The notes beneath the pieces were generated by a model. The model saw only the letters and a list, made by a program, of their open reading frames with translations. It was not told the origin of the DNA and did not search any database. The translations under genes and the position numbers were made by a program. DNA of 64,000 nucleotides from Nitrosopumilus sp. (GTDB lineage Archaea > Thermoproteota > Nitrososphaeria > Nitrososphaerales > Nitrosopumilaceae): NCBI GenBank assembly GCA_965219345.1, contig OZ244732.1, forward strand, positions 1,600,001-1,664,000. The letters run 5' to 3'. How positions within the stretch are numbered: position 1 is the stretch's first letter; each line of letters starts with the position of its first letter. Positions 36,282-58,482 of the stretch are shown here, piece after piece.

Positions 36282-37217
36282 TTGGGTCTTGAAGATCATA
36301 CAGAACCAAATGATGGCCAAAATAAGAAAAAGAAGTTTTCTGATGGTTTAAGAATGGTACAGTCAGAGTCAATACAGTTGAGAACCCGTAACTTGTCAGA
36401 TACGTCGGCTCTGGTACTGCTCCTAGCTGACGGGGCAGTCCATACAAGCAGACATTCCAAAAAATATCTGGGCATGCTAAATCTTGATTCAGGCAAGACG
36501 CTTTACTCTGAGTGTGGCAGGATATGGCCGCACTACGGCGAGGTGATAAAGAACAGGAAGAGATGCATCATGGATCTAGTTCTTCACCACGTCACAAAAG
36601 AGAGGATCACGCAGCTGGCAGTCTTGGGCAGCGGCATGGATGCCCTGTCCCTGGAGACAGTATCACGTGCCAAGGACGTTGATGCCTATGATGTTGATTA
36701 TTCGCATATGGAGCTCAAAGAAAGGCTCATCAGAAAGGCATACGGCACAAGCCCAATCAGGTGTGTTCTCTCTGATCTGAATGATGCAAAAAAGGTTCTT
36801 GACGGCATGAGAAAAAACGGATGGGACAACAGCAGGCCGTCGGTTTTGGTGCTTGAGGGGATATCATATTATTTGAGCAGAAAAAAATTGTGGGATCTTG
36901 TTGCCACATTCAAGACAGCAGACAGGAGAAACGTGCTGATACTGGAGTACATGGTACCGCAAGAGGGGATTGCCAGAAAAAGACAACAGATACCGGAGCA
37001 AGTTTTTGGAGCAATTCAGAAGAAGAGTGACGACTCAAAGACACACCATACCGTAAGATATGGTGCAGATGACATTAGGATGTGCATTGAGAAGATTGGG
37101 GGATGTCTCATCCTGAGATACCGCATGAAGAACATGGAGAAGAACAGGACGGGGCACAACGTGCACTTTAAGACATACAAGAGCGGGTGGATTGAGGTGT
37201 GCCAGGCAGTTATCTGA
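36282..37217 (+). CDS. class I SAM-dependent methyltransferase (leucine-carboxyl-methyltransferase-like)
   Basis: VLGSGMD, YDVD, SDL, VLEGISYYL; true start probably downstream. Confidence 0.82.
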   Translation: MGLEDHTEPNDGQNKKKKFSDGLRMVQSESIQLRTRNLSDTSALVLLLADGAVHTSRHSKKYLGMLNLDSGKTLYSECGRIWPHYGEVIKNRKRCIMDLVLHHVTKERITQLAVLGSGMDALSLETVSRAKDVDAYDVDYSHMELKERLIRKAYGTSPIRCVLSDLNDAKKVLDGMRKNGWDNSRPSVLVLEGISYYLSRKKLWDLVATFKTADRRNVLILEYMVPQEGIARKRQQIPEQVFGAIQKKSDDSKTHHTVRYGADDIRMCIEKIGGCLILRYRMKNMEKNRTGHNVHFKTYKSGWIEVCQAVI

Positions 37218-37830: not shown

Positions 37831-38051
37831 GTTACACTAAAAAAAGAAGCAACGCGTGGTTTTTGCTGCCAATCCTCTTGGGAATTGTCGGCGGCATCAT
37901 TGCATTTTTTGTCTTGCGACAAGATGATCCTGCAAAGGCAAAAAACTGCCTGTACCTAGGAATTGTGTTGATGGTAGTGGGCATAGTCTTGAACGTCACC
38001 CTTGCTGCATTTTTCCCCGAGTTGGGTGCAGACTTTGATGTGAACATCTAG
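37827..38051 (+). CDS. small two-TM membrane protein
   Basis: WFLLPI..GIVGGIIAFF..DDP.KAKNCL; overlaps the upstream stop. Confidence 0.7.
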   Translation: MSYTKKRSNAWFLLPILLGIVGGIIAFFVLRQDDPAKAKNCLYLGIVLMVVGIVLNVTLAAFFPELGADFDVNI

Positions 38052-38181
38052 AGAGGGTACATGTCGTTTCAGACAGCATCTGCAGGTCAGCAAATTTTGC
38101 AATGCAAGATTATCCCGGCACGCGACTGCACTAAATTCATGCCTCCAAACACAAATAAAAGACAAAAAAGAGATTCTCCAG

Positions 38182-38646
38182 ATGGCAAAGAAGACACTTT
38201 ACCTTGCAAACCCGTACGGATTCTCTGAGCAACAAAAAGCCGGACCGCTGCAAGACCTTGTAAGGACGCTAAATGATCTGGGAGCCGAGGTGTGGGAGCC
38301 GTTTGAGCGAAACAATCAGGACAGTATGCTGGCAGCTGGCAGTCCCTACAAGATCGGCCGTGCTGACATGCAAGATGTCAGGGATGCAGACGGCATCTTT
38401 GCAGTCGTTAATGGGACGCCGCCAGATGAAGGCGTAATGATCGAGCTTGGCATGGCTATTGCATGGGGCAAGGAGGTCTTTTTGTTCCGTGATGACTTTC
38501 GGAGATGCACTGACAGCAGTATGTATACGCTCAACCTGATGCTGTTTACCGGCCTGCCAGAAAACGGCTGGCAAGACTGGTACTATACCAGCATGGCCGA
38601 GCTTGCAGACCCAGACAAGGCCCTGGTAAAGTGGCTAAACAAATAA
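38182..38646 (+). CDS. nucleoside 2-deoxyribosyltransferase family protein
   Basis: YLANP, D....DG, DEG.MIELG.A, NLML. Confidence 0.9.
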   Translation: MAKKTLYLANPYGFSEQQKAGPLQDLVRTLNDLGAEVWEPFERNNQDSMLAAGSPYKIGRADMQDVRDADGIFAVVNGTPPDEGVMIELGMAIAWGKEVFLFRDDFRRCTDSSMYTLNLMLFTGLPENGWQDWYYTSMAELADPDKALVKWLNK

Positions 38647-38733
38647 CCTGTTACTGTAAGATCATCATCATCTAATTTCAAAATTATTTTTTCTAAGGTA
38701 AAGTGGCTAAACAAATAACCTGTTGCTGTAAGA
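38625..38733. repeat. 37-bp direct repeat pair around a 35-bp unique insert
   Basis: GGTAAAGTGGCTAAACAAATAACCTGTTRCTGTAAGA at 38625-38661 and 38697-38733. Confidence 0.92.
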
Positions 38734-38833
38734 CAGCGATGTGCGGATCTGCTTACTCTTCAAATCTGACAGCGCGTGGAGCTGTTGTAGTCAGGTAAAT
38801 TTACATACAGGAATGCGATATGCCATCTCTTAT

Positions 38834-38890
38834 GCATTGAAGGTGAAAACAAGTGGAAGGCAATCATTGAGAACGCAAGTAAGGATTAAT
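38834..38890 (+). mobile_element. IS6-family transposase extreme C-terminal relic
   Basis: Translates IEGENKWKAIIENASKD*, similar to GLNKWKTIIQNAS in the 10075-10512 ORF. Confidence 0.55.
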
Positions 38891-39353
38891 CTTTTTTCTT
38901 AAGAGATTTGAATTTTTCATTTATCTCTTCAGGAGATAGAATTGTTCCAAATAGTTTTTCATATTTTGCTAATTCTTGCTGTAGAATTATAGCCCATGAT
39001 TTTAAGTTGACAGGTGTTAGATTTATCACACATTCAATTTCTCTATTGATTGTTGTTTTAGATGCCTTGATTTGATTTCCGTTTAATGCTTCTCTATAAT
39101 CTGGAATATCATGTAATACAGTTAGTTTGACTCCGTCATAGGTTAAATTGGAAATCTGTCCAGATACATGAACTTCTTTGTATGTGTTTGATTGTGTTAC
39201 TTGTACATCTGGTGCTTCGGACATGATTTTATCATTCTCATAAATAAAATTATTTAAACTGATCCCAATTTTTGGGCTTATTATCAATTCTGAGAGCAAT
39301 TTTATGGTCTCGATTCCAGAGACAGATTTAGTCATTTTTTCCTCCACCGACAC
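38886..39353 (-). CDS. hypothetical protein (DUF3467-like); probable start at MSEAP
   Basis: C-terminal LQQELAKYEKLFG.I pattern; family call tentative. Confidence 0.55.
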   Translation of the reverse strand: MSVEEKMTKSVSGIETIKLLSELIISPKIGISLNNFIYENDKIMSEAPDVQVTQSNTYKEVHVSGQISNLTYDGVKLTVLHDIPDYREALNGNQIKASKTTINREIECVINLTPVNLKSWAIILQQELAKYEKLFGTILSPEEINEKFKSLKKKD

Positions 39354-39571: not shown

Positions 39572-41257
39572 TTGACACAAACATCAATGAGCGAGCCAAA
39601 GTCAGATACTCTGGATCTCATACCGGTAAGAATGCTTACACAGTATGCATACTGCAAGCGCCTGGCATACATGGAATGGGTGCAAGGCGAGTTTGAGTAT
39701 AATGCAGACGTAGTAGACGGCAAGTATCAGCACAGAAATGTAGACAAGCCGTCTGGAACAAAACAGACTGATCAGGACACAGATGAAAAGATTCATGCAA
39801 GATCAGTCACCATGTCAGATGCAAAACTCGGACTCGTATCTAAGATGGATCTGCTTGAGATGGAGGGAAATACCGCAACTCCGATAGAATACAAGCGTGG
39901 AAGCACTCCCAAGAATCCTAACAGGACGTATGAGGATCATGTCGTGCAGGTGTGTGCACAGGGACTGTTGCTTCGCGCAAACGGATACACATGCACCAGA
40001 GGCATTGTCTACTACATATCATCAAAGCAGAGAATAGAAGTCAATCTAGATGATGAGACGGTAAAAAAGACAAAACAGATGATCATGGAGATGAGGGAGA
40101 TGGCAAGTACTGACATGATGCCGCCTCCTCTTGTAGACAGTCCAAAGTGTCCGCGATGTTCTCTTGTCGGCATATGTCTGCCAGACGAAACAAACATGCT
40201 ATCCAAAAACGTGAGCCATATGAATAAGGATCAGATCCGCAGGATGTACCCAATGCGAAACGATGCCATCCCGATGTACGTGCAGGAGCAGGGGGCATAT
40301 GTAACAAAATCCGGAGAATGCATCCACGTAAAGACAAGAGAGGGATCTGTAAAAAAAGTCAGGCTAATTGACATCTCAGAGATCACAGTGTTTGGAAACG
40401 TACAGATAACAACCCCTGCAATACGGGAACTGTGCAACAGAAACATTCCCATCTGCTACATGACATACGGAGGATGGTTTACCGGCATGATTTCAGGACT
40501 GTCCCACAAGAATGTGGAGCTTCGCATAGGCCAGCACAGAATATACGAAAAGAAGAATGCATCTATGGCAATAGCTCGCGAGATTGTGTTTGCAAAGATA
40601 AAAAATTGTGTAACAATGCTGCGCAGAAACCACAAATCTCCCCCAAAAGACAAGATAGACGAGCTGGACGGATTTGCAGAGCGAGCACGTACTGTCAGGC
40701 AGTATGAGACACTTCTGGGAATAGAAGGAATGGCAGCTCGCATATATTTTTCAGAGTTTAACGGTATGGTAAAATCGGAGTCGATGTATTTCGAGTTTGT
40801 AGGCAGAAACAGGAGGCCTCCAAAGGATCCAGTCAATGCAATTCTGTCTTTTTTGTATGCGATGCTGACAAGGCAGGCGGTGACTACTGTGAGCATGGTT
40901 GGCCTTGATCCATATCTGGGGTATCTTCACAGGCCAAAGTATGGCAAACCTGCACTTGCGCTTGATCTGATTGAAGAATTTCGGCCAATTGTGGCAGATT
41001 CTGTCTGCATCACGCTTATCAATAACGGAGAGATAACCCCATCAGACGTGATAAAGACACGCTTTGGTGTGAATCTCACAAGTAATGGAAGGCGTAATGT
41101 GATAACTGCATATGAAAGGCGGATGGACACTACCATAACACATCCGATTTTGGGTTATGCTGCAAGTTATAGGAGGGTTATGGAGACGCAGGCAAGATTA
41201 CTCTCCAGACACATCCTAGCGGAGATCCCGGCATATCCTGCATTTAGGACAAGGTGA
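39572..41257 (+). CDS. cas1: Cas4-Cas1 fusion (type I-G adaptation)
   Basis: Cas4: YCKR, D...EYKRG, C..CSL...C; Cas1: LLGIEG, RNRRPP.DP.NA.LS..Y, GLDPY.G.LH, DL.EEFRP. Confidence 0.96.
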   Translation: MTQTSMSEPKSDTLDLIPVRMLTQYAYCKRLAYMEWVQGEFEYNADVVDGKYQHRNVDKPSGTKQTDQDTDEKIHARSVTMSDAKLGLVSKMDLLEMEGNTATPIEYKRGSTPKNPNRTYEDHVVQVCAQGLLLRANGYTCTRGIVYYISSKQRIEVNLDDETVKKTKQMIMEMREMASTDMMPPPLVDSPKCPRCSLVGICLPDETNMLSKNVSHMNKDQIRRMYPMRNDAIPMYVQEQGAYVTKSGECIHVKTREGSVKKVRLIDISEITVFGNVQITTPAIRELCNRNIPICYMTYGGWFTGMISGLSHKNVELRIGQHRIYEKKNASMAIAREIVFAKIKNCVTMLRRNHKSPPKDKIDELDGFAERARTVRQYETLLGIEGMAARIYFSEFNGMVKSESMYFEFVGRNRRPPKDPVNAILSFLYAMLTRQAVTTVSMVGLDPYLGYLHRPKYGKPALALDLIEEFRPIVADSVCITLINNGEITPSDVIKTRFGVNLTSNGRRNVITAYERRMDTTITHPILGYAASYRRVMETQARLLSRHILAEIPAYPAFRTR

Positions 41258-41261
41258 GAGG

Positions 41262-41549
41262 TTGCGCAACAGATACTTTGTGTGTTACGATGTTTCAGAT
41301 CCGCAGCGGCTTGCGCAGACATACAAGAAGATGAAAGGATACGGAGAAGCAGTACAGTATTCCGTGTTTGCCTGCGATCTAAATGACAAGGAGATCATAA
41401 TTATGAAGGAGGATCTGGGGAACATATTAAACCTAGAAGAGGACAGAATTTTGATGATCAACATCGGATCGGTGGACAAAAGCAAGGATCGTGTGTCCAC
41501 TATGGGCATGTCGCTTGAAACACAAAAGGAGGCATCCATAGTGATATGA
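41262..41549 (+). CDS. cas2: CRISPR-associated Cas2
   Basis: YFVCYDV, VQYSVF, EDR. Confidence 0.96.
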   Translation: MRNRYFVCYDVSDPQRLAQTYKKMKGYGEAVQYSVFACDLNDKEIIIMKEDLGNILNLEEDRILMINIGSVDKSKDRVSTMGMSLETQKEASIVI

Positions 41550-41727
41550 TAAAGACGATGCGAGATGTCGTGACTCATCGCATCTACGAAGAAGCGCTTG
41601 CAGATGTGTTTTATGGTAAAAAAAATATGCGTAAAATATACTTGCACGGTATGACCAAAACGTCGGCAAACAAAGAAAAAACAACGAAGAGCGAAAATTT
41701 CTTGACGAATCCTGAGAAAATGACAGG
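41550..41727 (+). promoter_or_regulatory. CRISPR leader
   Basis: A-rich stretch between cas2 and the first repeat; the degenerate repeat lies at the opposite end of the array. Confidence 0.8.
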
Positions 41728-44700
41728 ATTTCCATAACGAAAAAGTTATGGCCCCATTGAAGCTTTTACCTCGAATATTGAAAAGTCTATTCTAACACCT
41801 TGAATTTCCATAACGAAAAAGTTATGGCCCCATTGAAGCAATGCAAATCGAAAATAATTATGCTACAATCGGCAGAATTTCCATAACGAAAAAGTTATGG
41901 CCCCATTGAAGCACAAAAGTCAATCTTCACTTTCTCCTTGGATTTTTGATTTCCATAACGAAAAAGTTATGGCCCCATTGAAGCTCTTCTTTGTTTCCTG
42001 CCATAATTATTCAGAACAATCAGGATTTCCATAACGAAAAAGTTATGGCCCCATTGAAGCTAGTAAGATATTGTAAGGCGTCTTGCTCATCATCTCGATT
42101 TCCATAACGAAAAAGTTATGGCCCCATTGAAGCTCCTCTTCGTCTAAAGTTCCTCGAAGAAGAAAATTCCAAATTTCCATAACGAAAAAGTTATGGCCCC
42201 ATTGAAGCTTTGACAAGTCTACAACAGTACCTGAGGTGTGTAAAATTTCCATAACGAAAAAGTTATGGCCCCATTGAAGCACGGATGTGGATATGAGACA
42301 CATGAAAGGAGTCCCATAATTTCCATAACGAAAAAGTTATGGCCCCATTGAAGCTTCAAGCTGAATTGATAGTCCCTCCAGTGCTCTATCCCTTATTTCC
42401 ATAACGAAAAAGTTATGGCCCCATTGAAGCATTAATTTCAGTGCCAATAACAATTGATTTTTTGGTTAAATTTCCATAACGAAAAAGTTATGGCCCCATT
42501 GAAGCGATACCAGTATCGATTTGTAGCCTTTGCCCCATATACTTAATTTCCATAACGAAAAAGTTATGGCCCCATTGAAGCTCCAGTTCCTTGCCCTTTA
42601 GGCCGTCATCCCACTCGAAATTTCCATAACGAAAAAGTTATGGCCCCATTGAAGCCTCGATGGACTCCTCTATTTCTCCCTGGGCTGATTTATTTCCATA
42701 ACGAAAAAGTTATGGCCCCATTGAAGCTTAATTCCTGATGTTGTTGCTCAAGAAACTGCGGCGGAATTTCCATAACGAAAAAGTTATGGCCCCATTGAAG
42801 CAGATAAAACATGAAGGATCAAATTAAGACAAGGCCCATTTCCATAACGAAAAAGTTATGGCCCCATTGAAGCTCCCTAGGGGAATCGATTACATTCCCA
42901 TTAGGAAAATTTCCATAACGAAAAAGTTATGGCCCCATTGAAGCACTTTTTTGGGACAAGTTGTGCATTATTACAAAAAGGCAAATTTCCATAACGAAAA
43001 AGTTATGGCCCCATTGAAGCAAAGTATAGTTACAAAATTATGTTAACACAAAAAAGAAATTTCCATAACGAAAAAGTTATGGCCCCATTGAAGCCGTGAC
43101 ACCTTTGCAATTCCCCCCGCCAATTCCAACAATTTCCATAACGAAAAAGTTATGGCCCCATTGAAGCTCTGTTCTGGAGGAAAGTTAGTATCAGTGTATG
43201 ATGCCGAATTTCCATAACGAAAAAGTTATGGCCCCATTGAAGCTTCCCTCAGGATCAATAAACACCTGCTCTGACATTAATTTCCATAACGAAAAAGTTA
43301 TGGCCCCATTGAAGCAGATCACTAAATTCCAATGATGTGTTTGCCAGTGTCTGATTTCCATAACGAAAAAGTTATGGCCCCATTGAAGCCATCATCATCG
43401 ATTCCATCATCATCGATTCCATCATATTTCCATAACGAAAAAGTTATGGCCCCATTGAAGCATTTTTTCGGCGGTGCTAACCATGTCGATCATAACGAAT
43501 TTCCATAACGAAAAAGTTATGGCCCCATTGAAGCAAAGACTGGCAGTAACTACTAGGTCTACTCCCTTTTTTTAGCATATTTCCATAACGAAAAAGTTAT
43601 GGCCCCATTGAAGCTTTTCTATGTTTGCCGACTTTATTATATCCCAGTTCAACCCCAATTTCCATAACGAAAAAGTTATGGCCCCATTGAAGCGTTTTTG
43701 GCGGTGTTTCCTCCTCCACCAACGGATGTGATTTCCATAACGAAAAAGTTATGGCCCCATTGAAGCTGTCGTAACTATCACCGGTGCCTGCGATGGTTCT
43801 GCATTATTTCCATAACGAAAAAGTTATGGCCCCATTGAAGCATAACAAAGGAATTGCTGCCGGCCATATCACGGCAGATTTCCATAACGAAAAAGTTATG
43901 GCCCCATTGAAGCCTCCTCCTCCTTCCCCCATTTGTCCTGCAGAATCCATTGATTTCCATAACGAAAAAGTTATGGCCCCATTGAAGCGGTAAGCCCCTT
44001 TACGGAGATAATTTGGAGGATAGTAATTTCCATAACGAAAAAGTTATGGCCCCATTGAAGCTCACGGGACAGTCCCGCGGTACGGGTGGAACCGAGATTT
44101 CCATAACGAAAAAGTTATGGCCCCATTGAAGCATTGAGTGTTCTTGCGTTGCTTTGGTGTGCTGTGCTACATTTCCATAACGAAAAAGTTATGGCCCCAT
44201 TGAAGCTGATTTTCCAGCCGTTTTTACGACGGCCTTAGTATTTAATTTCCATAACGAAAAAGTTATGGCCCCATTGAAGCGAATAAAATTTTGGGTGATA
44301 TGGTTAATCCAAAAATATTTCCATAACGAAAAAGTTATGGCCCCATTGAAGCCGGTATTGGTACTAGTTCCGGTATTGGCTCTTCCGGATTTCCATAACG
44401 AAAAAGTTATGGCCCCATTGAAGCATGGGCTTGCTGGGTGTTCATCCTGCTTTCATCGTAGATTTCCATAACGAAAAAGTTATGGCCCCATTGAAGCCTA
44501 CTTCCTCGAGATGGACACTTGTAATATATTTAAAGTTCGTAATTTCCATAACGAAAAAGTTATGGCCCCATTGAAGCACATTTACCAGTTTCATCAAAAT
44601 AGTGCATACAATCACATTTCCATAACGAAAAAGTTATGGCCCCATTGAAGCTCTTTTGTTGCTGAGTGCATGTACCTTGGAGCGAGAAAATTTCCATAAC

Positions 44701-47700
44701 GAAAAAGTTATGGCCCCATTGAAGCAACGAATTCGGTAGGCTTACATCACCCACTACGGACGGGAATTTCCATAACGAAAAAGTTATGGCCCCATTGAAG
44801 CCCAGTCTTCCCGCTTTAGCTCCAGGATTCCCGTAGTTATCAATTTCCATAACGAAAAAGTTATGGCCCCATTGAAGCCCATGCAGGCCGTTAGGTCGCT
44901 GCGCACTTGTGACAAATTTCCATAACGAAAAAGTTATGGCCCCATTGAAGCAATTTTCTCATGGTTGCTTGACAGGGTCAATACCTCCATATTTCCATAA
45001 CGAAAAAGTTATGGCCCCATTGAAGCCTTTTTTCGTTAATCGCGAAAGTGCCGAATAAACCGAATTTCCATAACGAAAAAGTTATGGCCCCATTGAAGCT
45101 TGCCTTCCAATTTTTAATACAGTTTCTTCTCCAAAATTTCCATAACGAAAAAGTTATGGCCCCATTGAAGCGAAACGCAATCGGCACGGACATCAACCCA
45201 AAGGCAATTGAGCTGTGTCTGCAGATTTCCATAACGAAAAAGTTATGGCCCCATTGAAGCTTTCCCATGCCGCTAAACGCGGTGAGCGTCTAACAATTGC
45301 GGCCCAAATTTCCATAACGAAAAAGTTATGGCCCCATTGAAGCAAAAGTTGGGAATTTATTACCGAATCTGCCAAACTGAATTTCCATAACGAAAAAGTT
45401 ATGGCCCCATTGAAGCTTATCATGGATAATGTCGCCAAATTGCCTACATTTTTTATTTCCATAACGAAAAAGTTATGGCCCCATTGAAGCTCGCTCATGT
45501 CACCGCCGCCGCCTCCAAGCATTCCGCATTTCCATAACGAAAAAGTTATGGCCCCATTGAAGCTAGTTTGTTGGCAAGTAGTTCAAAGGTTGCTGTTTCT
45601 TATTTCCATAACGAAAAAGTTATGGCCCCATTGAAGCATATCTGGTCCATCCTACATTATCTGGTATGTCTGGTATTTCCATAACGAAAAAGTTATGGCC
45701 CCATTGAAGCAGAATCATATAATCTAACACCGTGGAGTCTGTGGATGATTTCCATAACGAAAAAGTTATGGCCCCATTGAAGCTTGCTCCTACTCTGTCC
45801 CTTACTACTTCTGAGATGAATTTCCATAACGAAAAAGTTATGGCCCCATTGAAGCATGGTCATGTGAGAACCACCTTCGAATTGAAGGTTACCAATTTCC
45901 ATAACGAAAAAGTTATGGCCCCATTGAAGCTCGAAAACAGGTGCCCATCCGTCAACCTCATTTCCTCCACTGGATTTCCATAACGAAAAAGTTATGGCCC
46001 CATTGAAGCTTAGTTTCTGCTGTTTTTCCGTCTCGTTTTGCCTTAACCAATTTCCATAACGAAAAAGTTATGGCCCCATTGAAGCACCTAATCCTTCCAT
46101 AGGAACGCAATAGCACCTCCTAATTTCCATAACGAAAAAGTTATGGCCCCATTGAAGCACGATTGATGAGCAAACACCAACTTTACCAGACATACATTTC
46201 CATAACGAAAAAGTTATGGCCCCATTGAAGCAAAGAATAATCAACATCGCTAAACGGAACAAATGGAAATTTCCATAACGAAAAAGTTATGGCCCCATTG
46301 AAGCGGCTAAAATTACAGCATCATAGATGTAGTTGCTGCGGGATTTCCATAACGAAAAAGTTATGGCCCCATTGAAGCACATCGACAATAATTCGTGAAG
46401 AATTGAAATATTCGAGATTTCCATAACGAAAAAGTTATGGCCCCATTGAAGCTTGTCCAGCAAATGTTAGAAATAGAAAGTTTGTTGATTTCCATAACGA
46501 AAAAGTTATGGCCCCATTGAAGCCCGTGTTGACGACCATTACAATTTGTATGCCAAATTACAAATTTCCATAACGAAAAAGTTATGGCCCCATTGAAGCG
46601 TAATTGCGTGAATACATACTGGAAAAGTGCATATCCCAATTTCCATAACGAAAAAGTTATGGCCCCATTGAAGCGATTTCATTTTGTAAAATTTGGAGTG
46701 CCTCATTATCATTTCCATAACGAAAAAGTTATGGCCCCATTGAAGCGGTGGAGTTGTAATGCTGAGGTTTGGGGAAATACAGAATTTCCATAACGAAAAA
46801 GTTATGGCCCCATTGAAGCAGCGACCGGGAAAAAATCCGCGTCGATTGTAACGCGCGAATTTCCATAACGAAAAAGTTATGGCCCCATTGAAGCTCAGCC
46901 CCGAGCCCCCCCCCCCTAGTCGCAGATTAACCCCACATTTCCATAACGAAAAAGTTATGGCCCCATTGAAGCTTTTGATGGTCTAAATTTTCTAACGCCC
47001 TTTTCAAAAATTTCCATAACGAAAAAGTTATGGCCCCATTGAAGCTATTATAGGAATAAAGTTGAAGAGTGCATAGTTGCGACAAATTTCCATAACGAAA
47101 AAGTTATGGCCCCATTGAAGCTACCTATTGTTTTTACCGGCTTGATGATTTCACCGGCGATTTCCATAACGAAAAAGTTATGGCCCCATTGAAGCACTTT
47201 CAGTGTAGGAAACACGCAGAAAGACTAGTGAAATTTCCATAACGAAAAAGTTATGGCCCCATTGAAGCTGAAATCTTTGTCAGTCTTTATGGTTCGCCTA
47301 AAAATATTTCCATAACGAAAAAGTTATGGCCCCATTGAAGCAAAAACTCGAAGGCAATAACGGCCATAAAAAAAACTGATTTCCATAACGAAAAAGTTAT
47401 GGCCCCATTGAAGCCACCACCTCCATCAGCGCGTCATACACCGTGGTCTCCTCGCCATTTCCATAACGAAAAAGTTATGGCCCCATTGAAGCAACGTGTA
47501 CGGTTACAATGAACCAGATGATGAACCCATATTTCCATAACGAAAAAGTTATGGCCCCATTGAAGCGTATTTCATAGTGATCACACTGAGAATAATTTCT
47601 ATAAATTTCCATAACGAAAAAGTTATGGCCCCATTGAAGCGCCCCAACTGAAGTAATCATCCTCAATCACGGTGTCAATTTCCATAACGAAAAAGTTATG

Positions 47701-50700
47701 GCCCCATTGAAGCATGAAGTATTGAGTGCCAGTCCCTGATTCCACTGAAATTTCCATAACGAAAAAGTTATGGCCCCATTGAAGCTCTAATATCGCTCTA
47801 AAGGCAATTCCATTTAGCGCAATTTCCATAACGAAAAAGTTATGGCCCCATTGAAGCATCTTTTCATCATCATTACCATGAGGACAACTACAAGCATTTC
47901 CATAACGAAAAAGTTATGGCCCCATTGAAGCATCAAAATCAATCCCATATTCGCGCTTGTACCGATATCATTTCCATAACGAAAAAGTTATGGCCCCATT
48001 GAAGCGGAGCGCCAACGATTGTAAACGCGAGTCCTGTAGTTATTTCCATAACGAAAAAGTTATGGCCCCATTGAAGCTCTCACCTTCCGCTGATTCCCAT
48101 CTTACCAGTAGGTGAGATTTCCATAACGAAAAAGTTATGGCCCCATTGAAGCAGCCTAGTGTGTGTAACCGCCCGCTGAAAAGGACTATTATTTCCATAA
48201 CGAAAAAGTTATGGCCCCATTGAAGCAAAACCTTTGGCCATAACAAATTATGTTGCTGTTGCTACATTTCCATAACGAAAAAGTTATGGCCCCATTGAAG
48301 CTCTTTTTGTTGGGTCTTCCATGTCGTGATAATTTGACATTTCCATAACGAAAAAGTTATGGCCCCATTGAAGCGCCCTCCTCTGTCATTTGTCTAGTCC
48401 TAAAGCCGAGATTTCCATAACGAAAAAGTTATGGCCCCATTGAAGCTTAGTTCGGAAGGATCAAAGGGAAAAATATCGGACAATTTCCATAACGAAAAAG
48501 TTATGGCCCCATTGAAGCTGGTATGTACCGGGCGCGGACGGAAAAAGCGCCAAAATTTCCATAACGAAAAAGTTATGGCCCCATTGAAGCTCCATATCTC
48601 GCCTTTCGTTGTTTATCTAATCTAAATTTCCATAACGAAAAAGTTATGGCCCCATTGAAGCGAAGTTGCTACTCCTTTTGTCTTTTCCACAAAAACCGTA
48701 TTTCCATAACGAAAAAGTTATGGCCCCATTGAAGCACTGCCGTAAATTCCGACTAATCCAGCCATACCAAAATTTCCATAACGAAAAAGTTATGGCCCCA
48801 TTGAAGCTTGGATCTGCTATCTTTCCCATGGTGGTGACAGCCCGATTTCCATAACGAAAAAGTTATGGCCCCATTGAAGCGGTGTATACAACGATAATAA
48901 CAGCCAGGTATTTGGCAGATTTCCATAACGAAAAAGTTATGGCCCCATTGAAGCAGTTATCTTGGGTGGATCAATCGGTTTTTTATTTCAGGTAGAATCT
49001 GAATTTCCATAACGAAAAAGTTATGGCCCCATTGAAGCATGGTCATGTGACTTCCGCCCTCATATTGCAAATTGCCGTATTTCCATAACGAAAAAGTTAT
49101 GGCCCCATTGAAGCACAAGTCTTTACGGTTCGCCCAAAAATTCTCGTTATATTTCCATAACGAAAAAGTTATGGCCCCATTGAAGCTCAGTACTCCTGAT
49201 AGCACGAGCAATTAAAGCACTAGATTTCCATAACGAAAAAGTTATGGCCCCATTGAAGCTAATATCCATTCTCTAATTTTGTTTTTTCTGCATATCTATT
49301 TCCATAACGAAAAAGTTATGGCCCCATTGAAGCTGTGAGAATGAGCTGTCGGATTTCAGGATGTTTAGATTTCCATAACGAAAAAGTTATGGCCCCATTG
49401 AAGCTGTGATAAAGCCATCTGCAACCAGCACGTAATTTCTATTTCCATAACGAAAAAGTTATGGCCCCATTGAAGCGTGTAATTGACTTGAGAAATTGTT
49501 TTTGATTGTTCCAAATTTCCATAACGAAAAAGTTATGGCCCCATTGAAGCTGTAATTGACCTAACCAATCTACTGGAGGGTCATTAATTTCCATAACGAA
49601 AAAGTTATGGCCCCATTGAAGCTGAGAGGTCCATGAAAAATTTGGGAATCAAGGCGGTATTTCCATAACGAAAAAGTTATGGCCCCATTGAAGCCAGAAA
49701 CTTTGATACAAAGTGAAAGCATCAAACTTGATTTCCATAACGAAAAAGTTATGGCCCCATTGAAGCGTCTATTTGGCGAATCTAAGGGATTCATCTAAAT
49801 GTCCGATTTCCATAACGAAAAAGTTATGGCCCCATTGAAGCTTGGATACTTTGACGATGCTGAAGAGGTTGAAAAATATTTCCATAACGAAAAAGTTATG
49901 GCCCCATTGAAGCTTTAATTTCGGTATGTTTAGGACGCCAGATGAAACAATTTCCATAACGAAAAAGTTATGGCCCCATTGAAGCTGATGCTAGTTTTGT
50001 TAAGGGGAATTAATTTTTCCTTGATTTCCATAACGAAAAAGTTATGGCCCCATTGAAGCAGGGTCTTGCTGGACACACGACTGGGATTTCTTGATGAGAT
50101 TTCCATAACGAAAAAGTTATGGCCCCATTGAAGCACAGACTGGGATTGGGATGTTTCAGGTGACCTAAATAATTTCCATAACGAAAAAGTTATGGCCCCA
50201 TTGAAGCCCTGGTTTTCCACTTCCTATAATTCCTGGACAAATTCAGATTTCCATAACGAAAAAGTTATGGCCCCATTGAAGCTTCGGAATGTGGTTTCTT
50301 AATCAATCGGACGAATCTGAATTTCCATAACGAAAAAGTTATGGCCCCATTGAAGCAAATTCCTCTGATGTTGCCAGTGTTCCTCTTTTGGTATTTCCAT
50401 AACGAAAAAGTTATGGCCCCATTGAAGCTCTGTTTAGTAAAATGATGGATTACTGGGGATTGACCACGATTTCCATAACGAAAAAGTTATGGCCCCATTG
50501 AAGCGGAGACAACTAGAGAAATAATATAATGACAGAAATACCTATTTCCATAACGAAAAAGTTATGGCCCCATTGAAGCACGACAATAATAACATTCTAC
50601 TTCCCGACCCCTGGATAAATTTCCATAACGAAAAAGTTATGGCCCCATTGAAGCCCAACTACAAGAACGTAAATTGTCTTGTAATAGATATTTCCATAAC

Positions 50701-53700
50701 GAAAAAGTTATGACCCCATTGAAGCAGAAATAAAAAAAAGAAAAAGGGGTGATTGATTAATCAATTTCCATAACGAAAAAGTTATGGCCCCATTGAAGCC
50801 CAAACGGCAGTAAAGCCGCCCGTCGCGAATGAACCGACTCTAATTTCCATAACGAAAAAGTTATGGCCCCATTGAAGCAAAAGAAATTGTCTTATAAGTT
50901 TACAAAGAACCTCTTAATTTCCATAACGAAAAAGTTATGGCCCCATTGAAGCTGCCTCATTTGCTGAGCGTTCGTACGACTCAATCGCAATTTCCATAAC
51001 GAAAAAGTTATGGCCCCATTGAAGCGCTAAATCTGTCAATGATATGCTAGATAGCAGAGCCAATTTCCATAACGAAAAAGTTATGGCCCCATTGAAGCTG
51101 GTATGTCATGCTCCAGGATTTGGGCATCCGATTTCATTTCCATAACGAAAAAGTTATGGCCCCATTGAAGCAGGTGGATCGATTGGTTTTTTATTTCAGG
51201 TTGAGAGCGAATTTCCATAACGAAAAAGTTATGGCCCCATTGAAGCTCACCATCTCAACAGGCATTTATTGAATCTCGAGAGATTTCCATAACGAAAAAG
51301 TTATGGCCCCATTGAAGCATCCCGTGACACAAAGAATAATTCCACAACCATACCCAATTTCCATAACGAAAAAGTTATGGCCCCATTGAAGCTTGTTCTG
51401 AGAGCGCCACATTCAGAAACATGAGAGAATTTCCATAACGAAAAAGTTATGGCCCCATTGAAGCAAGATTATTGGCGTCGCCGGATATGATAACTACGGG
51501 AAATTTCCATAACGAAAAAGTTATGGCCCCATTGAAGCAATTATTCACCGAATCAGAAATTAGCCTAACTCAGGTTCCCTATTTCCATAACGAAAAAGTT
51601 ATGGCCCCATTGAAGCAGCAATTTATCAAGGAACATCACAAGGAGATGTCGATTTCCATAACGAAAAAGTTATGGCCCCATTGAAGCGCCCTCTATATCT
51701 CCAGAATTGCCATGCTGAGTTTCATAATTTCCATAACGAAAAAGTTATGGCCCCATTGAAGCAAGGCATCTGTTGCGACATTGTCTAATCCACCGTTCCT
51801 TATTTCCATAACGAAAAAGTTATGGCCCCATTGAAGCCTTGCGAATTCGTGAGCATCATCAACCACCATCACCAAAATTTCCATAACGAAAAAGTTATGG
51901 CCCCATTGAAGCAAGGTGATGGACTCACCACACGATCTATTATTTCACAATTTCCATAACGAAAAAGTTATGGCCCCATTGAAGCTTTGGCCATTCCGCC
52001 ATAATTCGATTTTTCCGGTTCCGGCGGATTTCCATAACGAAAAAGTTATGGCCCCATTGAAGCTCTTCTTCAAGATAATCTACCTCACGGAATCCATGAA
52101 TTTCCATAACGAAAAAGTTATGGCCCCATTGAAGCTCAGTGTGGTCTTTGTGGTGGTGCTGCCAGTTAGCGCGATTTCCATAACGAAAAAGTTATGGCCC
52201 CATTGAAGCTGGTATTATGGACGGCGCTGTCAATTCTCATCTATATTTCCATAACGAAAAAGTTATGGCCCCATTGAAGCATCCAATGGAGGGGTAAGAA
52301 CAGGAGGAGGCAATTCCATATTTCCATAACGAAAAAGTTATGGCCCCATTGAAGCTCGTATGCTCTGCCAATTTGTCTGAGTGATGGCCTTATTTCCATA
52401 ACGAAAAAGTTATGGCCCCATTGAAGCCCCAAAACAAGAATGGTGGGGGTGGTGATGGCAGGGACAAATTTCCATAACGAAAAAGTTATGGCCCCATTGA
52501 AGCGATAGTTTGCCATGTATTATTAAATCGTCACATTCAGATTTCCATAACGAAAAAGTTATGGCCCCATTGAAGCTACGAATAGTAAGTTTGCCCTTCA
52601 CAAAGTGATGGAATTTCCATAACGAAAAAGTTATGGCCCCATTGAAGCGTATCAATTATAATATTATTTCTGGTACAATATTTGAGATTTCCATAACGAA
52701 AAAGTTATGGCCCCATTGAAGCCCGAATATCGACATGGCACTGAAGGTCATAGAGTCTATTTCCATAACGAAAAAGTTATGGCCCCATTGAAGCATTGTA
52801 ACGACTACGTGTGTACCTATGTTTCCTACCCTAATTTCCATAACGAAAAAGTTATGGCCCCATTGAAGCTACTGCATCGTATAGACTCTGTGTGTAGGCA
52901 TACTCATTTCCATAACGAAAAAGTTATGGCCCCATTGAAGCCATCTCTCAGTATTTCCGCATTCCCAGCATCCTTTGATTTCCATAACGAAAAAGTTATG
53001 GCCCCATTGAAGCGAGTGAGATTGGAAACGAAAATGCAGACACATTGAAAATTTCCATAACGAAAAAGTTATGGCCCCATTGAAGCAGCGAACCGTCCTA
53101 TTCCTACTTTCAGTACTATTCTTATTTCCATAACGAAAAAGTTATGGCCCCATTGAAGCGGATATAAGGTGAGGATGGATATCGCAATTAATGGGCATTT
53201 CCATAACGAAAAAGTTATGGCCCCATTGAAGCTGAGCATCCTCGGCACCATGCCCTGTGAATTCCCTCAGAATTTCCATAACGAAAAAGTTATGGCCCCA
53301 TTGAAGCTAGTACGCTAATTACATCTTGTGCTATTTGTTCGCGCAATTTCCATAACGAAAAAGTTATGGCCCCATTGAAGCAGTAAATGTGAACTGTATC
53401 ATTAATTTCAAGAAAACTATTTCCATAACGAAAAAGTTATGGCCCCATTGAAGCCTTGCCAAAACACGTAAAAAATGTAGGCAATTTGGCGAATTTCCAT
53501 AACGAAAAAGTTATGGCCCCATTGAAGCGTCAACGCCTTCCATGGACATTGGGACCAACACTAAATTTCCATAACGAAAAAGTTATGGCCCCATTGAAGC
53601 ATTGTTACCCTTACTGCCGTTCACCAAAAGCTATCGCCTATTTCCATAACGAAAAAGTTATGGCCCCATTGAAGCGAAAAAATCTCTGAGGCAATTTCGA

Positions 53701-53821
53701 CGCACACACCAATTTCCATAACGAAAAAGTTATGGCCCCATTGAAGCAGGTGTAAGATTCCATCGTGAGATGAATTCTGTTGTGGATTTCCATAACGAAA
53801 AAGTTATGGCCCCATTGAAGC
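41728..53821 (+). CRISPR. CRISPR array, about 164 repeats / 163 spacers (hand count)
   Basis: 36-bp repeat ATTTCCATAACGAAAAAGTTATGGCCCCATTGAAGC with CCATAAC/GTTATGG hairpin and ATTGAAGC 3' end; spacers mostly 35-43 bp. Confidence 0.99.
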
Positions 53822-53908: not shown

Positions 53909-55324
53909 TTAAATGGTTTCTGGGACAAACATCCCCAAACCAAAATGAGCACCATGGCCAAAAGATAGAGGCCCTTGTATTTCCTCATCAAATTCAATCA
54001 ATACATCATATGCGCCAAATCCTGCAAGTTTGTCCTTTCTCCAACGACTAAACTGGATTGGTTTTAAGCCACATTTCATAGTAGAGGTGCTATCATTAAT
54101 TTCAATATTTTTGATTTTTGCTGTATCGCAAAATCTCCTTTTAATCTCCAGTCTTATCTGATCTTCTGGACCATCAACTATGTGTTTTTCCCCTTTACCT
54201 CTTACCTTGACATGTCTATTAAGTACAAATGGTGTAACAGATCTCCATCTTTTTGATTTTTGCAAAATTAAAATTTTTTCGAAATCTTCGAGTTCTCCGT
54301 ATCCCTGAAATACCAGACTAAATCCGTTTTGACCATATTGAACATGTCTCATAGAGGCTAATGCGTTCATCTCCTTTTCACCAAATGGATCTTTTGCAAC
54401 TATTGTTATATGATCTAAAATATTGTCTCCATCCTCATCGGTTGGAAGAAAAAATGCATGTCTATGGTTGTCTTTAAGATATGTGCTATCTGTTTGTTTT
54501 CCTGTGAATACTTGTGATGTCTCATTTTTATTTTCCTTTCCATAAATTGACATAGCAACTCTTCTAAGAAAATCACCCACATGGAGTGATTTAGTAACTT
54601 TTGGCCTTACGCTTCCTGCAATACGATATCTGACGACATTTATCGGTTTTGGTGGTACTGATGTGCTTTCCAACTGTTTTGTAAGCAAGTCCTTTGGAAG
54701 CCCATACTGTATCCATTTACTCCCCGGAGGATTCATAATTTTTTCTTTGTGAAGATCTCCAGTCTCAACGCAAATGTCCTCAAATGATACATTCTTGTTT
54801 GTAACTAGAACCTGAACGATATTTTCATTTCCTATGTGTACGTCATCCTCTAACTTGGAACAGTTTGGGGTGGGTGGTTTATCTACGCGTTGTACTTTAC
54901 ACCATGATTCTGCCCGTCCAAAGTATGACATGCTATTGATCACGATATCCAAAATTTCTTCTTGTTTCGTCTCTAATTTGACATCATTCCATATTGCAAC
55001 AACACACTCTTGAGTGTTTATCACCATAAAAGAGTCAATTATCTTTGTGGTTTCTTCTCCTCCCCAAACTGGCATGTAATGTCTAGTATGTGACTGTATT
55101 GCATTTGGCAGGTTAAATGAAACATCACATTCTGAGATAGCCTTTAGTATGGGCCACATTTCATCATATTTTATGTTATTTGATGTTTTTTTCCAAGTTG
55201 CAATTATTGCTCGCAATATACGCCAAGGGGATGGAGGCCAGTCAATTATCCCTTCATTTACATTTCTACCCCACTGTGTTGCATGATATCTACCAGCTAA
55301 AAATCTAAACGATAGTGCAAGCAT
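53909..55324 (-). CDS. csb2: type I-G Csb2 (Cas5-Cas6 fusion)
   Basis: GRYHAT.W, DWPPSPWR, YFGRAESW, H.HAFFLP, W.SVTP, GP..FG.G.HFGLGMF. Confidence 0.94.
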   Translation of the reverse strand: MLALSFRFLAGRYHATQWGRNVNEGIIDWPPSPWRILRAIIATWKKTSNNIKYDEMWPILKAISECDVSFNLPNAIQSHTRHYMPVWGGEETTKIIDSFMVINTQECVVAIWNDVKLETKQEEILDIVINSMSYFGRAESWCKVQRVDKPPTPNCSKLEDDVHIGNENIVQVLVTNKNVSFEDICVETGDLHKEKIMNPPGSKWIQYGLPKDLLTKQLESTSVPPKPINVVRYRIAGSVRPKVTKSLHVGDFLRRVAMSIYGKENKNETSQVFTGKQTDSTYLKDNHRHAFFLPTDEDGDNILDHITIVAKDPFGEKEMNALASMRHVQYGQNGFSLVFQGYGELEDFEKILILQKSKRWRSVTPFVLNRHVKVRGKGEKHIVDGPEDQIRLEIKRRFCDTAKIKNIEINDSTSTMKCGLKPIQFSRWRKDKLAGFGAYDVLIEFDEEIQGPLSFGHGAHFGLGMFVPETI

Positions 55325-55332
55325 GTTATTTT

Positions 55333-56304
55333 TTATGAACCCTGTTTACTTTTATTTTTTGTTTCATATTTGATGCTAATTGACTTATTTGGATCGAACT
55401 TACATTTAGATATAAGATCTTTTATCTTCGAGTTTAATTCAGACATGTCAGGTAATGTAAATCCTTCAGGAGATATAACTTTGGGTTCACTCTTAATCTG
55501 AAGATCGCATGCAGTTCGCAAACGCAATCCTGTTTCCAAGAATTTTTGAATCTTCCACAATGCCAGATTTATCAGTAATTCTGTCTGATGTTTTTCAAGA
55601 CAGTAACTCCTTATCTGTTGTAAATCTAGATTAAAAAATGCTGTTATGGATTCGGCAGTGTATTCTATACGTGAAAATGGAACGTTTCCTTGACCTTTTG
55701 ATGCACCACCTGTATCATCATCCTTACCTGGCTTAACATGATCAATTTTTGCACCACCACTTGTAACATTCTTTACATTTTTTGCCTCTATGAATGCTGA
55801 GAGTGCACGTGGAATTTTTATTCTTCCTTCCGCAATTTTTTTTGCAATCCAAACTCCATGTAACAAAGAATTAACATCCAATTCAAATATCAAAGGAGAT
55901 GTTTTAACAAGATCCGTGTTCCATCTTCCATCTTTATTTTGTAATCCATTTAATTTCTTTTTGATTTCCTCATTGCCACCTTCAAGGATATAAAACGAAC
56001 CGATTCGATGTGATTCACGAACTGAATTTGTTATTTGTTCATTATTGATATTGTTGACCTTTATCATTGGCAATCCATTTAATTCATCAACAAAGTTTGT
56101 CTTGTCTTTGTTCAAGCAAACTTCTTCCAAACGATTTGCCATTGATTGTGGTGATTCAACTAAAAGTGATATTGTGCTGTCATGTAATGGAATCTCAGCT
56201 GCACCCAAGTCTGGAAATCCAGTTGGCTGGAATCTATCTCCTTGTATAGGCTTTAATTCCACTTCTAATAATAATCTGCCACTGTTCTCTAAACTGTCAC
56301 TCAT
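55333..56304 (-). CDS. csb1: type I-G Cas7 (Csb1)
   Basis: RFQPTGFPD, LVESPQSMANRLE, HR, NSLLHG, RIKIPRAL, LRLRTACDL. Confidence 0.94.
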   Translation of the reverse strand: MSDSLENSGRLLLEVELKPIQGDRFQPTGFPDLGAAEIPLHDSTISLLVESPQSMANRLEEVCLNKDKTNFVDELNGLPMIKVNNINNEQITNSVRESHRIGSFYILEGGNEEIKKKLNGLQNKDGRWNTDLVKTSPLIFELDVNSLLHGVWIAKKIAEGRIKIPRALSAFIEAKNVKNVTSGGAKIDHVKPGKDDDTGGASKGQGNVPFSRIEYTAESITAFFNLDLQQIRSYCLEKHQTELLINLALWKIQKFLETGLRLRTACDLQIKSEPKVISPEGFTLPDMSELNSKIKDLISKCKFDPNKSISIKYETKNKSKQGS

Positions 56305-56328
56305 AAGATATCTAAGAATAGTCCATTA

Positions 56329-58482
56329 TTAAATTATATTGTATTTGATTCTGGGTTTTGCAATATGGTTAATCAGTTTCTCCATATCTGATTTATGTAA
56401 TGGAAAAAGAACAGCAGCTGTAAGTTTACTTATCATATGTTCTGGTATCTCCTGTGTTGAGTTTGATGAATACTTTGAGCTATCATATGTCAATATACTT
56501 GTACCAGTTATGTAAAGACGGCGCTGTGATATCTTGTGTGCTAAATTTATCTTACCTGATTTTAGCAGTCCTACTATAGATGGCTCAAATTTTGTAATAT
56601 TAGGGTCAAATGAGACTGGAGGAAAGTTTGACTTTATGGATATATATGTCTCTGGTATGAGCTCAGGAATTTCCCATATTTCTCTATAATTCTCATAGTC
56701 TAAATGATTATCATAATTAATCATTGAAAGTGGAAGTAATAGATTGCTTATCTTTTCATAGTCCAATTGACCATTTAGGAATAACAATACATCATTTACA
56801 GGCGCAGATACTTTTGATTTCAGTGGGATTGTTTTAAATTTTTGTATTTGGGCATCAATACATCGTCTTTCTAATACTGCAATCATGTTTTTAACGGTAT
56901 TGTTTTTATTCCATACTGCATGAGGACTTGATGGCTTCCATTCTAGTTTGTGGGTATACCTTATCTGCTCTAAATTGTATCTTATAGGATACTGTCCATC
57001 ATCATCTAAAATTGATGCCAAGGATACAGCAAGTCTGAATTCAGGTGTTTTATCATAACATGCACTTAGCCAATCAAAGGATAATTTCTGGAATGGTTGA
57101 ATCTTTTCTCTGATGGATGAGGAATTAGATATGATCCATTCTATCTTTCCTAAAATGATCAGGATCTCTTGCAAATATTGTTCCTTAGGATGTGTACAGA
57201 ATTTTATGATTGCGCCATCTATGTTACGTAATAATGATCTTATTGTTATTGGGAGGTTCTTCACTTTGCGGATTTTTTCCAACCACTCATCTATGTCTGT
57301 CAATAAATTGACTTGATGGTTTTTTATAGTATCTATCCTACCTAAACTAGTAGCAAGAAACGCCAATCCTTTTCTTTCAAACACACCAAATCTTTGAAAT
57401 CCGTATATGCCTCGCTCTGTACCCAAGCTTGTCAATGCTCTAACAAAATCAGTACCTGTGCTGGAATGTTTTTTGCCAATCTGTGATCTTCCTTCATTGA
57501 AGATATATTTTATTTCATCATATGTTGCAGGATTATCCCAGAGTGGAATCCATAACTCACCTCTAGACTTTTCTGCAGAGGATGAACCATATCCTGCCAT
57601 GGACGAATGCACTGTGAATGGGAATGCAGCTTTTGTTAAAATAGAACGGCGTGATACACTGCCTGCAAAAAGCAGGGTTCCCTCTATCATGAGAATATAG
57701 TCCCACGGATTTATCAATGATATTTTTTCTTTTTCGAAACCGGCACTTGTACAGTTTGATCCCTTGTATCCGTCAGGGTAAAAATATGCAGAGCTATTCT
57801 CCATTAACTTTACAGAATTACCAAACAACGAACCTTTAATCCAGTCTTTCTTCTCATCATCGGTGGAATTTTTATCTGGTAAAATACATTTACATATACA
57901 TTTCATAAAATTTTCTGAAATCTCAAAATTTCCATCATTTCCACAACTTCCTAAAATGGTACCATACGATGGTTTTGTAGATGTAATGACATACATTGCA
58001 TCAAACCAAGGTACTAATTTTTCAGTAATCTTGTTGCGGAATTGACTGAGCAGTAGATCTTTGTTATTCTTTATTTTCTTTTTGAGTTCTTTCATACGCT
58101 CCTCATCTTTTTTCTTGATTAGTTCAGCATATTCAGAAATGTTATCTTGGAGAATTTCTCGTACGTCTTCAAAAACCTCACAATACTCCTTTAAACGTTT
58201 ATTGTCTGATTGTTCTATCTCATACACAACAGAGTTGTCCACATCAAAAAAACCACTACCTCCATTCCAAGGGGATACTAGTGGTGTTGGTTTATACTGT
58301 TTTAGAAAAAAATCAAGTAATTCATCTTTGCTCAATTTTGTATGCAATACAAACACGTCTCTTTCCCAGTTTGCCGTAATTTCTTGGTCCATCTGTTCTG
58401 CTAGGATGCGAAAAATTCCAAGTGCTTTTAGATTCATCATAAGTGATTCTGGAATACATCCGTCCAGTCGTATGTCTATCAT
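56329..58482 (-). CDS. csx17: type I-G large subunit Cas8g (Csx17)
   Basis: LKALG, PTPLVSPWNGGSGF, GNDG, NPWD.IL..EG, AAFPF, RGELW.PLW, EGR. Confidence 0.93.
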   Translation of the reverse strand: MIDIRLDGCIPESLMMNLKALGIFRILAEQMDQEITANWERDVFVLHTKLSKDELLDFFLKQYKPTPLVSPWNGGSGFFDVDNSVVYEIEQSDNKRLKEYCEVFEDVREILQDNISEYAELIKKKDEERMKELKKKIKNNKDLLLSQFRNKITEKLVPWFDAMYVITSTKPSYGTILGSCGNDGNFEISENFMKCICKCILPDKNSTDDEKKDWIKGSLFGNSVKLMENSSAYFYPDGYKGSNCTSAGFEKEKISLINPWDYILMIEGTLLFAGSVSRRSILTKAAFPFTVHSSMAGYGSSSAEKSRGELWIPLWDNPATYDEIKYIFNEGRSQIGKKHSSTGTDFVRALTSLGTERGIYGFQRFGVFERKGLAFLATSLGRIDTIKNHQVNLLTDIDEWLEKIRKVKNLPITIRSLLRNIDGAIIKFCTHPKEQYLQEILIILGKIEWIISNSSSIREKIQPFQKLSFDWLSACYDKTPEFRLAVSLASILDDDGQYPIRYNLEQIRYTHKLEWKPSSPHAVWNKNNTVKNMIAVLERRCIDAQIQKFKTIPLKSKVSAPVNDVLLFLNGQLDYEKISNLLLPLSMINYDNHLDYENYREIWEIPELIPETYISIKSNFPPVSFDPNITKFEPSIVGLLKSGKINLAHKISQRRLYITGTSILTYDSSKYSSNSTQEIPEHMISKLTAAVLFPLHKSDMEKLINHIAKPRIKYNII

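Follow-up and report, generated by a model that had tools for sequence, protein, structure and literature searches.

A solitary repeat-insert-repeat unit at the 3' end of a nucleoside 2-deoxyribosyltransferase (NDT) gene of Nitrosopumilus sp. very probably arose when the resident type I-G Cas4/1-Cas2 carried out a single full-site spacer integration off target. The sequence-only reading of the window (the whole stretch of DNA analysed, 64,000 nt) had proposed a natural fossil of ectopic type I-G acquisition. The geometry of the unit, the source of its insert, the empty site in a relative, parallel units in the same genome and a Cas1-less control all agree with such an event, the protospacer-adjacent motif (PAM) being the exception. 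Nor is the unit a lone fossil, the genome carrying 29 solitary units with a spacing of 70-76.

Structure and source of the unit at the NDT gene

The NDT gene (Pfam PF05014, E 8.7e-25) occupies positions 38182-38646 of the window on the plus strand. Its end lies within the first of two direct repeats, 38625-38661 and 38697-38733, each 37 nt long and identical at 36 of 37 positions, the sole mismatch being A at 38653 in copy 1 and G at 38725 in copy 2. The copies start 72 nt apart and leave 35 nt between them (38662-38696). Re-measurement reproduced exactly the earlier description of a 37-bp duplication with one mismatch around a 35-bp insert, and the repeat pair is well past chance for the 1.9-Mb genome (BLAST E 2e-10). 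Base 38661 (A) is common to the repeat and to the match with the insert's source, so that the duplication is either 36 or 37 bp long. Owing to this ambiguity, the unit is best read as 36+36+36, matching the native array in its geometry: copy 1 of a duplicated 36-bp target at 38625-38660, a spacer-sized fragment of 36 nt at 38661-38696 (35 nt if base 38661 is assigned to the repeat), and copy 2 at 38697-38732, which runs on into ancestral downstream sequence (38733-38781) homologous to that of the relative G154. The 36-37-bp duplication agrees in length with the native 36-nt repeat and the 35-36-nt insert with the native spacers (35-53 nt, modal length 36). The 72-bp period, previously said to match that of the neighbouring array, indeed equals one native repeat plus one spacer of modal length.

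The last six codons of the NDT gene and its TAA stop (38644-38646) are retained in copy 1, and the gene is therefore intact. Its orthologues are 93% (G154), 80% (G002 and G152) and 72% (G018) identical, and all end in ALxKWLxx followed by the stop; with the remoter G002, G152 and G018 only the end of the gene is in common. Downstream of the unit, about 40 nt of the stretch 38829-38882 have 80%-83% matches at four other places in the genome and also in relatives. Within the open reading frame 38741..38902 this stretch translates as ...EGENKWKAIIENA..., and we guess that it may be what is left of a multi-copy gene of sensor type.

The source of the insert, which the earlier reading had proposed to look for, was located in the cell's own chromosome. 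It is a small HEAT-repeat gene (Pfam HEAT_2, 6e-17) lying 1.34 Mb away on the opposite strand, where C1:301522-301557 matches the insert at 35 of 36 positions (E 3e-12); under strict scoring the match extends over exactly 38661-38696 of the window. The lone difference, GAC in the gene and GAT in the insert, is synonymous, and the orthologues of G157 and G159 match the insert perfectly (36/36). A search of relatives had returned unexpected 50-nt matches at the insert region in many genomes, together with a second place in the own genome. With up to 3 mismatches allowed, the 36-mer was found in 41 of 151 genomes of the genus including the own one (40 of 150 relatives), at one place in each relative and at two places only in the own genome. 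In addition, a contig with the HEAT-repeat gene from read run X1 diverges from the window exactly before 38661. Given these exact homology borders and the conservation of the gene, the insert amounts to one spacer length copied from a conserved cellular gene. Judging by the sequences, its donor could have been the cell's own gene, with one substitution occurring afterwards, or the HEAT-repeat gene of a very close relative.

The source is flanked by ATT when the spacer is taken in the minus-strand sense and by AAT in the plus-strand sense. The expectation of a 5' TTN PAM, taken from Geobacter sulfurreducens, was therefore disappointed. The native PAM is itself weakly known, from six flanks of overlapping spacers: CTT, CGT, TTT, TTT, TTC and ATT. 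A scan of viral contigs gave no match for the 36-mer insert and none for a multiply targeted native protospacer.

The empty site, for which relatives were to be checked, is present in G154, the closest relative found, which has a single target copy and lacks the 72-bp insertion. In G154 this site is interrupted at the same spot by an insertion sequence (IS) of 1.07 kb, so the single-copy state was read through the IS: the NDT gene ends ...GCCCTGATAAAGTGGCTAAACAAA, the IS follows, and then comes TAAATAACCTGCCGCTGTAGGCAGGCGGATCTGCC..., the homologue of copy 2 with 50 nt beyond it. G154 has G where the two copies differ, and the base in copy 2 is therefore the older one. The IS, at positions 4308-5375 of locus L062 (G154:C1:1384000-1392500, reverse strand), contains a 309-aa open reading frame and sits inside the very 36-bp integration target, so that two independent insertions have hit one spot.

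An IS in the identical target, along with the occurrence of casposons in Nitrosopumilus (PMC8464041, from the available part of the source), might point to a scar of an IS, MITE, casposon or integrative element that has since gone or decayed to 35 nt. We regard such an origin as extremely improbable. The insert lacks terminal inverted repeats; it precisely copies a cellular gene that occurs once, and does not represent the terminus of an IS or integrative element. The G154 IS is flanked by about 3 bp, not 36. Duplications made by casposases are 13 bp long in N. koreensis and about 14 bp in family 2 (PMC8464041, same part), and apart from the resident Cas4/1 the genome has no intact Cas1, only a 77-aa fragment (C1:1123019-1123267). 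The proposal of an att scar likewise found no support, the insert being a plain copy of coding sequence.

Seven run rows from four studies contain the window stretch or part of it. Contigs of X1 (38593-38726) and X4 (38623-38726) run through copy 1 and the insert and 30 nt into copy 2, and neither differs from the window. These two runs may be the source sample of the genome, and their contigs therefore exclude an assembly error and do not count as independent biology. An artefact might have been suspected in a genome that is probably a metagenome assembly and with a divergent strain co-occurring in the runs; its probability is negligible, as short-read contigs of two runs, though possibly from the source sample, carry both junctions and other genomes show clean empty sites for parallel units. 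Among the joints listed for four runs, none skips the 72 bp. Some read contigs break exactly at 38697, and others have C>T at 38623; from these a co-existing empty allele could at most be suspected. A scan of metagenome contigs with a 22-mer of the target gave 0 matches and thus no empty or filled site of the same species in that collection.

The resident type I-G system

The type I-G system at this locus is complete. The presumed integrase, a Cas4g/Cas1g fusion, is encoded at 39572..41257 on the plus strand in an unbroken frame (Pfam Cas1 7e-93 and Cas4 5e-21; NCBIfam NF049935 with 754 bits against a cut-off of 560), followed on the same strand by cas2 at 41262..41549 (Pfam PF09827, 4e-18). 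The start of cas4/1 lies 839 nt past copy 2, in line with the distance of about 0.85 kb given earlier, and an unnamed open reading frame (38886..39353, minus strand) is situated between the unit and cas4/1. A leader (41550..41727, plus strand), which ends in ...GACAGG adjoining the first repeat, leads into the native array (41728..53821, plus strand) with 164 repeats of 36 nt and 163 spacers. The effector genes csb2 (cas5/6), csb1 (cas7), cas8g/csx17 and cas3g are located at 53909..60935 on the minus strand and were recognized by NCBIfam models TIGR02165, TIGR02570, TIGR04113 and TIGR02621, all above their cut-offs. At the scale of the whole genome, this is the single CRISPR array, and the adaptation module is represented by both Cas4g/Cas1g and Cas2.

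In the native array, 163 of 164 repeats are identical and the modal spacer length of 36 nt is found in 37 spacers. The repeat forms a 7-bp hairpin (-8.3 kcal/mol, z -3.4). In the arrays of relatives (loci L010-L038) the stem varies with compensatory changes (CCATAAC/GTTATGG, CCGTAAC/GTTACGG, CTGTAAC/GTTACAG and CCGCAAC/GTTGCGG), while the 3' end of the repeat, CCCCATTGAAGC, is constant across species. Genuine CRISPR repeats also occur as solitary items, in one or two copies far from arrays, at loci L021 (G017), L024 (G164), L031 (G155) and L029 (G161).

Two native spacers, 45417-45454 and 53455-53492, overlap by 23 nt on opposite strands, and arrays of relatives contain several opposite-strand overlaps of that sort as well as same-strand ones. 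Such overlaps show that the same targets were sampled repeatedly. The native array had no match in a phage collection, and its spacers had none in the retrieved loci. When the 163 own spacers, and a set of 1091 distinct spacers drawn from the own and the relatives' arrays together, were compared with the own genome, only partial or gapped matches of 15-30 nt were obtained, none of full length. The nearest Cas4/1 proteins outside Nitrosopumilaceae (loci L199-L219) belong to Dehalococcoidia, Caldilineaceae and Anaerolineales, with 50%-57% identity; the sequence relationships suggest that the adaptation module moved between unrelated microbes.

With these components, the origin of the unit could have proceeded as follows. 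Cas4/1-Cas2 would have captured a 36-nt piece of the HEAT-repeat gene, the cell's own or that of a very close relative. Its attacks on the two chromosomal strands, staggered by 36 bp, would have fallen at the end of the NDT gene (3') and not at the leader-repeat junction 3 kb away, and gap repair would have duplicated the 36-bp target on either side of the insert. Since the duplication spans the stop codon, the NDT gene would have stayed intact and the insertion would have been tolerated. The enzyme's part in this sequence of steps is inferred from the geometry, the parallel units and the distribution among relatives.

Solitary units across the genome and in relatives

The earlier suggestion to scan the genome for further 36+36+36 units proved productive. 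A whole-genome search for direct repeats present as one isolated pair (24 or more of 26 positions matching, spacings 40-200) yielded 59 of them. Spacings of 70-76 accounted for 29 units, with duplications of 35-44 bp (36-38 bp in 21 of 29) and inserts mostly of 33-38 nt. A second class, with spacings of 64-68, comprised nine units with duplications of 27-38 bp, and all other spacings, about 150 of them, shared 21 units with duplications of various lengths.

Inserts of eight of the 29 units are self-derived, that is, 32-39 nt of them match elsewhere on the same chromosome, seven perfectly; among the spacers of the native array the corresponding figure is 0 of 163. TTN-like flanks were found at the sources of only two of these eight inserts. 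One source lies in the window itself, where 36412-36449 in the open reading frame 36282..37217 (leucine carboxyl methyltransferase-like) is a perfect 38-nt source for the insert of unit C1:915773.

The portions of G154, G156 or G007 that were sampled contained both flanks of 10 of 38 units, and in all ten cases the target in the relative is single-copy, the alignments overlap by 30-40 nt and the insert is absent. Six of 38 units disrupt reading frames, the open frame gaining 57-227 residues once the insert and one copy are removed. By our own reading, in about eight units including that of the NDT gene the duplication covers a stop codon or is only a few bases from where the frame ends; such gene-end positions are the pattern expected of survivors. 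The copies differ by 0 mismatches in 8 units, 1 in 11, 2 in 8 and 3 in 2, and the events are therefore of different ages. The location of one unit within 950 nt of the CRISPR-cas locus is mildly unusual (P about 0.03). The units are clustered, eight pairs of neighbours being no more than 6 kb apart where 2.5 would be expected (P 0.0015). Clusters on C1 are at 1503080-1519410, 1335273-1339961, 426363-429362, 915773-919312, 88225-92343 and 37490-43477, several of them in regions of raised G+C content, and may represent tolerant islands or preferred targets.

The nine units of the second class lie at C1:431953, 1251065, 1265409, 1448839, 1483340, 1573079, 1573477, 1824845 and 1826938; six of their duplications are 30-33 bp long, their inserts are 30-39 nt, and single-copy sites for three of them were found in G007. 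The own genome has no array whose repeat measures about 30 nt; it does contain the 77-aa Cas1 fragment mentioned above. This class (about 30+35) may consist of footprints of a CRISPR system since lost. Two further structures differ in size: a perfect 64-bp duplication around a 35-nt insert at C2:29725-29887, on the second contig of 41.6 kb, and a perfect 35-bp duplication around a 102-nt insert at C1:451555-451726.

Relatives served as controls, the first 792,200 bp of G154, G156 and G007 (42% of the genome in the case of G007) being scanned by the same procedure. Spacings of 70-76 were counted 9 times in G154, 10 times in G156 and 3 times in G007, compared with 14 in the same stretch of the own genome. 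Four of the ten in G156 come from a 72-nt repeat inside a multi-copy gene, and the duplications in G007 are 47, 51 and 40 bp long. Filtering for distinct units with a duplication of 34-40 bp and an insert of 32-40 nt left 24 in the whole own genome, 7 in G154, 6 in G156 and one borderline unit in G007. Of the 151 genomes of the genus, 11 have an intact Cas4g/Cas1g, some have decayed copies and many have none. In G156 the Cas4g/Cas1g frame is unbroken and the repeat is that of the own genome. G154 possesses arrays of this repeat family, while its cas1 and cas4 genes are only broken, and its units must therefore predate that loss. G007, with neither Cas1 nor an array, is the only Cas1-less control. 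The evidence for a dependence on Cas1-Cas2 is comparative: units are present in three genomes with I-G arrays, as against at most one borderline unit in 792 kb of G007. The same structure in relatives that never had this Cas1 would have spoken against the earlier proposal; the count in G007 is in its favour.

These data also bear on template switching, in which a stalled polymerase would have copied 36 nt of the HEAT-repeat gene and resumed 36 nt upstream with no Cas protein involved. Such a process is able to give a duplication around an ectopic insert, and several inserts, that of the NDT unit included, lack a PAM. It is nevertheless very unlikely, since microhomology at the junctions is absent beyond one common base, sizes would be expected to vary while 29 of 59 units have array-like geometry at spacings of 70-76, and Cas1-less G007 has at most one borderline unit in 792 kb.

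Target choice and fate of the units

The target at the NDT gene shows no significant likeness to the native repeat (16 of 36 identical positions, null 13.9 +/- 2.0) and no resemblance to the native leader. A likeness was rejected for all target sites taken together as well (mean 13.6 of 36, null 13.9). The motif ATAAC..GTTA, earlier taken as an echo of the repeat stem, turned out to be confined to copy 1; copy 2 and G154 have G there, and on this comparison GTTA is probably a later substitution.

Exploratory expectation-maximisation search of 38 sites, allowing for orientation and a one-base shift, found a C-rich flank adjoining the duplication, with a likelihood of 188.7 compared with 141.3 +/- 8.6 in 40 neighbourhood-matched control sets. 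CC or GG occurs within 4 nt outside the borders 31 times against 15.7 expected, an about twofold excess that is likewise exploratory and covers four flank classes. Neither the PAM, an end bias of native spacers nor this motif settled the orientation of the NDT unit. The leader ends in AGG in 8 of 14 multi-repeat arrays compared, the own array included. Since native leaders mostly end in AGG and Cas1-Cas2 of Pyrococcus furiosus prefers G/C, a half-site preference of the integrase is plausible by analogy.

The possibility that the unit is a functional mini-array, CreTA-like or regulatory, whose RNA would guide the I-G effector to the HEAT-repeat gene or the cas promoter, draws on its proximity to cas4/1, on a 5-bp hairpin followed by 8 nt that the minus-strand repeat can form, and on the known regulatory roles of ectopic repeats (PMC9458426, from the available part of the source). 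We consider it highly improbable. The similarity to the CRISPR repeat is within the null, the hairpin is no better than that of 28 of 200 shuffles, the unit is missing in the closest relative, and about 28 like units are found at unrelated places, several of them gene-breaking; the regulatory mini-array put forward earlier gained no support. The unit holds a single spacer. The duplicated sequence has neither a significant hairpin nor the 3' handle ATTGAAGC of the native repeat, and without the 7-bp hairpin and this end processing into crRNA is unlikely. On these sequence features, the unit most likely does not work as a mini-array and is an inert scar. Inertness would also explain why a "spacer" matching the cell's own, apparently core, gene survived here and never in the array.

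Taken at the level of the genome, it is likely, though less firmly so than the origin of the NDT unit, that Cas4/1-Cas2 acts here as a low-level genome-wide insertional mutagen. It would have left about 30-40 fixed insertions, or some 15 per Mb, over a quarter self-copied and some gene-breaking, as inert scars keeping the unselected input of adaptation, with the class of about 30+35 as the footprint of a lost system. If this is true, the scars preserve raw adaptation input, including self DNA that autoimmunity erases from the array (0 of 163 spacers), and document in nature what adaptation costs and how specific it is, besides supplying raw material for new arrays. Off-target integration has so far been shown with overproduced or purified Cas1-Cas2. 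The NDT locus offers a clean natural case, with donor, target, empty site and the probable enzyme all named and about 30 more units in the genome. Such units allow the target preference of the type I-G integrase to be read from natural events, and the uptake of self DNA to be gauged where selection cannot purge it (8 of 29 inserts against 0 of 163 array spacers). Gene disruption can be seen as a price of CRISPR carriage. For genome annotation, pipelines may call solitary 36+36+36 units mini-arrays or miss them.

Comparison with known systems

The mechanism itself is already known from Escherichia coli and in vitro work, as far as the available parts of these sources extend. In the literature searched, which was limited in coverage, no description of natural genome-wide ectopic spacers was found, and a natural genome-wide archaeal type I-G record with self-derived inserts appears to be undescribed within the literature that could be searched.

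The casposase of Ca. Nitrosopumilus koreensis, from the same genus, is likewise a Cas1-family integrase producing a target duplication set by a ruler. According to the available part of PMC8464041, however, the casposon makes a 13-bp duplication, requires a specific target and carries cargo with terminal inverted repeats. CreTA shares with the NDT unit a repeat-spacer-repeat structure outside the array and near cas genes, but in the available text of PMC9458426 the CreA repeats are degenerate CRISPR repeats used by Cascade, whereas those of the NDT unit are ordinary gene sequence unrelated to the CRISPR repeat.

Cas4/1-Cas2 of the type I-U/I-G system of G. sulfurreducens belongs to the same gene family (NF049935), inserts spacers of mainly 36 bp and serves a repeat ending in AGC, as here (PMC6547450 and PMC10504553, available parts). 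In G. sulfurreducens a TTN PAM accompanied 50% of unique and more than 80% of all spacers, in contrast to ATT or AAT at the NDT insert's source; half of the unique naive spacers likewise lacked TTN, and a description of chromosomal off-target events was not found in the accessible portion of that paper (PMC6547450). Cas1-Cas2 of P. furiosus performs full-site off-target integration in vitro at repeat-length spacing (PMC6698737, available part). The NDT unit resembles its products in the paired attacks one repeat length apart on non-CRISPR DNA, and the preference of this enzyme for G/C at the attacked positions can be set beside the twofold excess of CC/GG flanks. The P. furiosus events, as given in the same text, had 30-bp spacing and took place on plasmids at sites resembling the repeat, unlike the 36-bp spacing, the chromosomal location and the lack of detected overall repeat likeness here.

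The precedent in E. coli invoked by the sequence-only reading is documented in later papers that cite Nivala, Shipman & Church 2018 (Nat Microbiol 3:310), by whose account off-target integration of the type I-E system in vivo produced neo-CRISPR units. As in that system, so far as the citing texts describe it, a spacer was placed outside the array and a repeat-length target was duplicated, giving repeat-spacer-repeat from non-CRISPR DNA. There, Cas1-Cas2 was overproduced and oligonucleotides were supplied, natural cases being called circumstantial. The NDT unit differs in representing a natural archaeal event with a presumed type I-G Cas4/1 fusion, a self-derived source and an empty site in a relative, and in being one of about 29 fixed units in a single genome.
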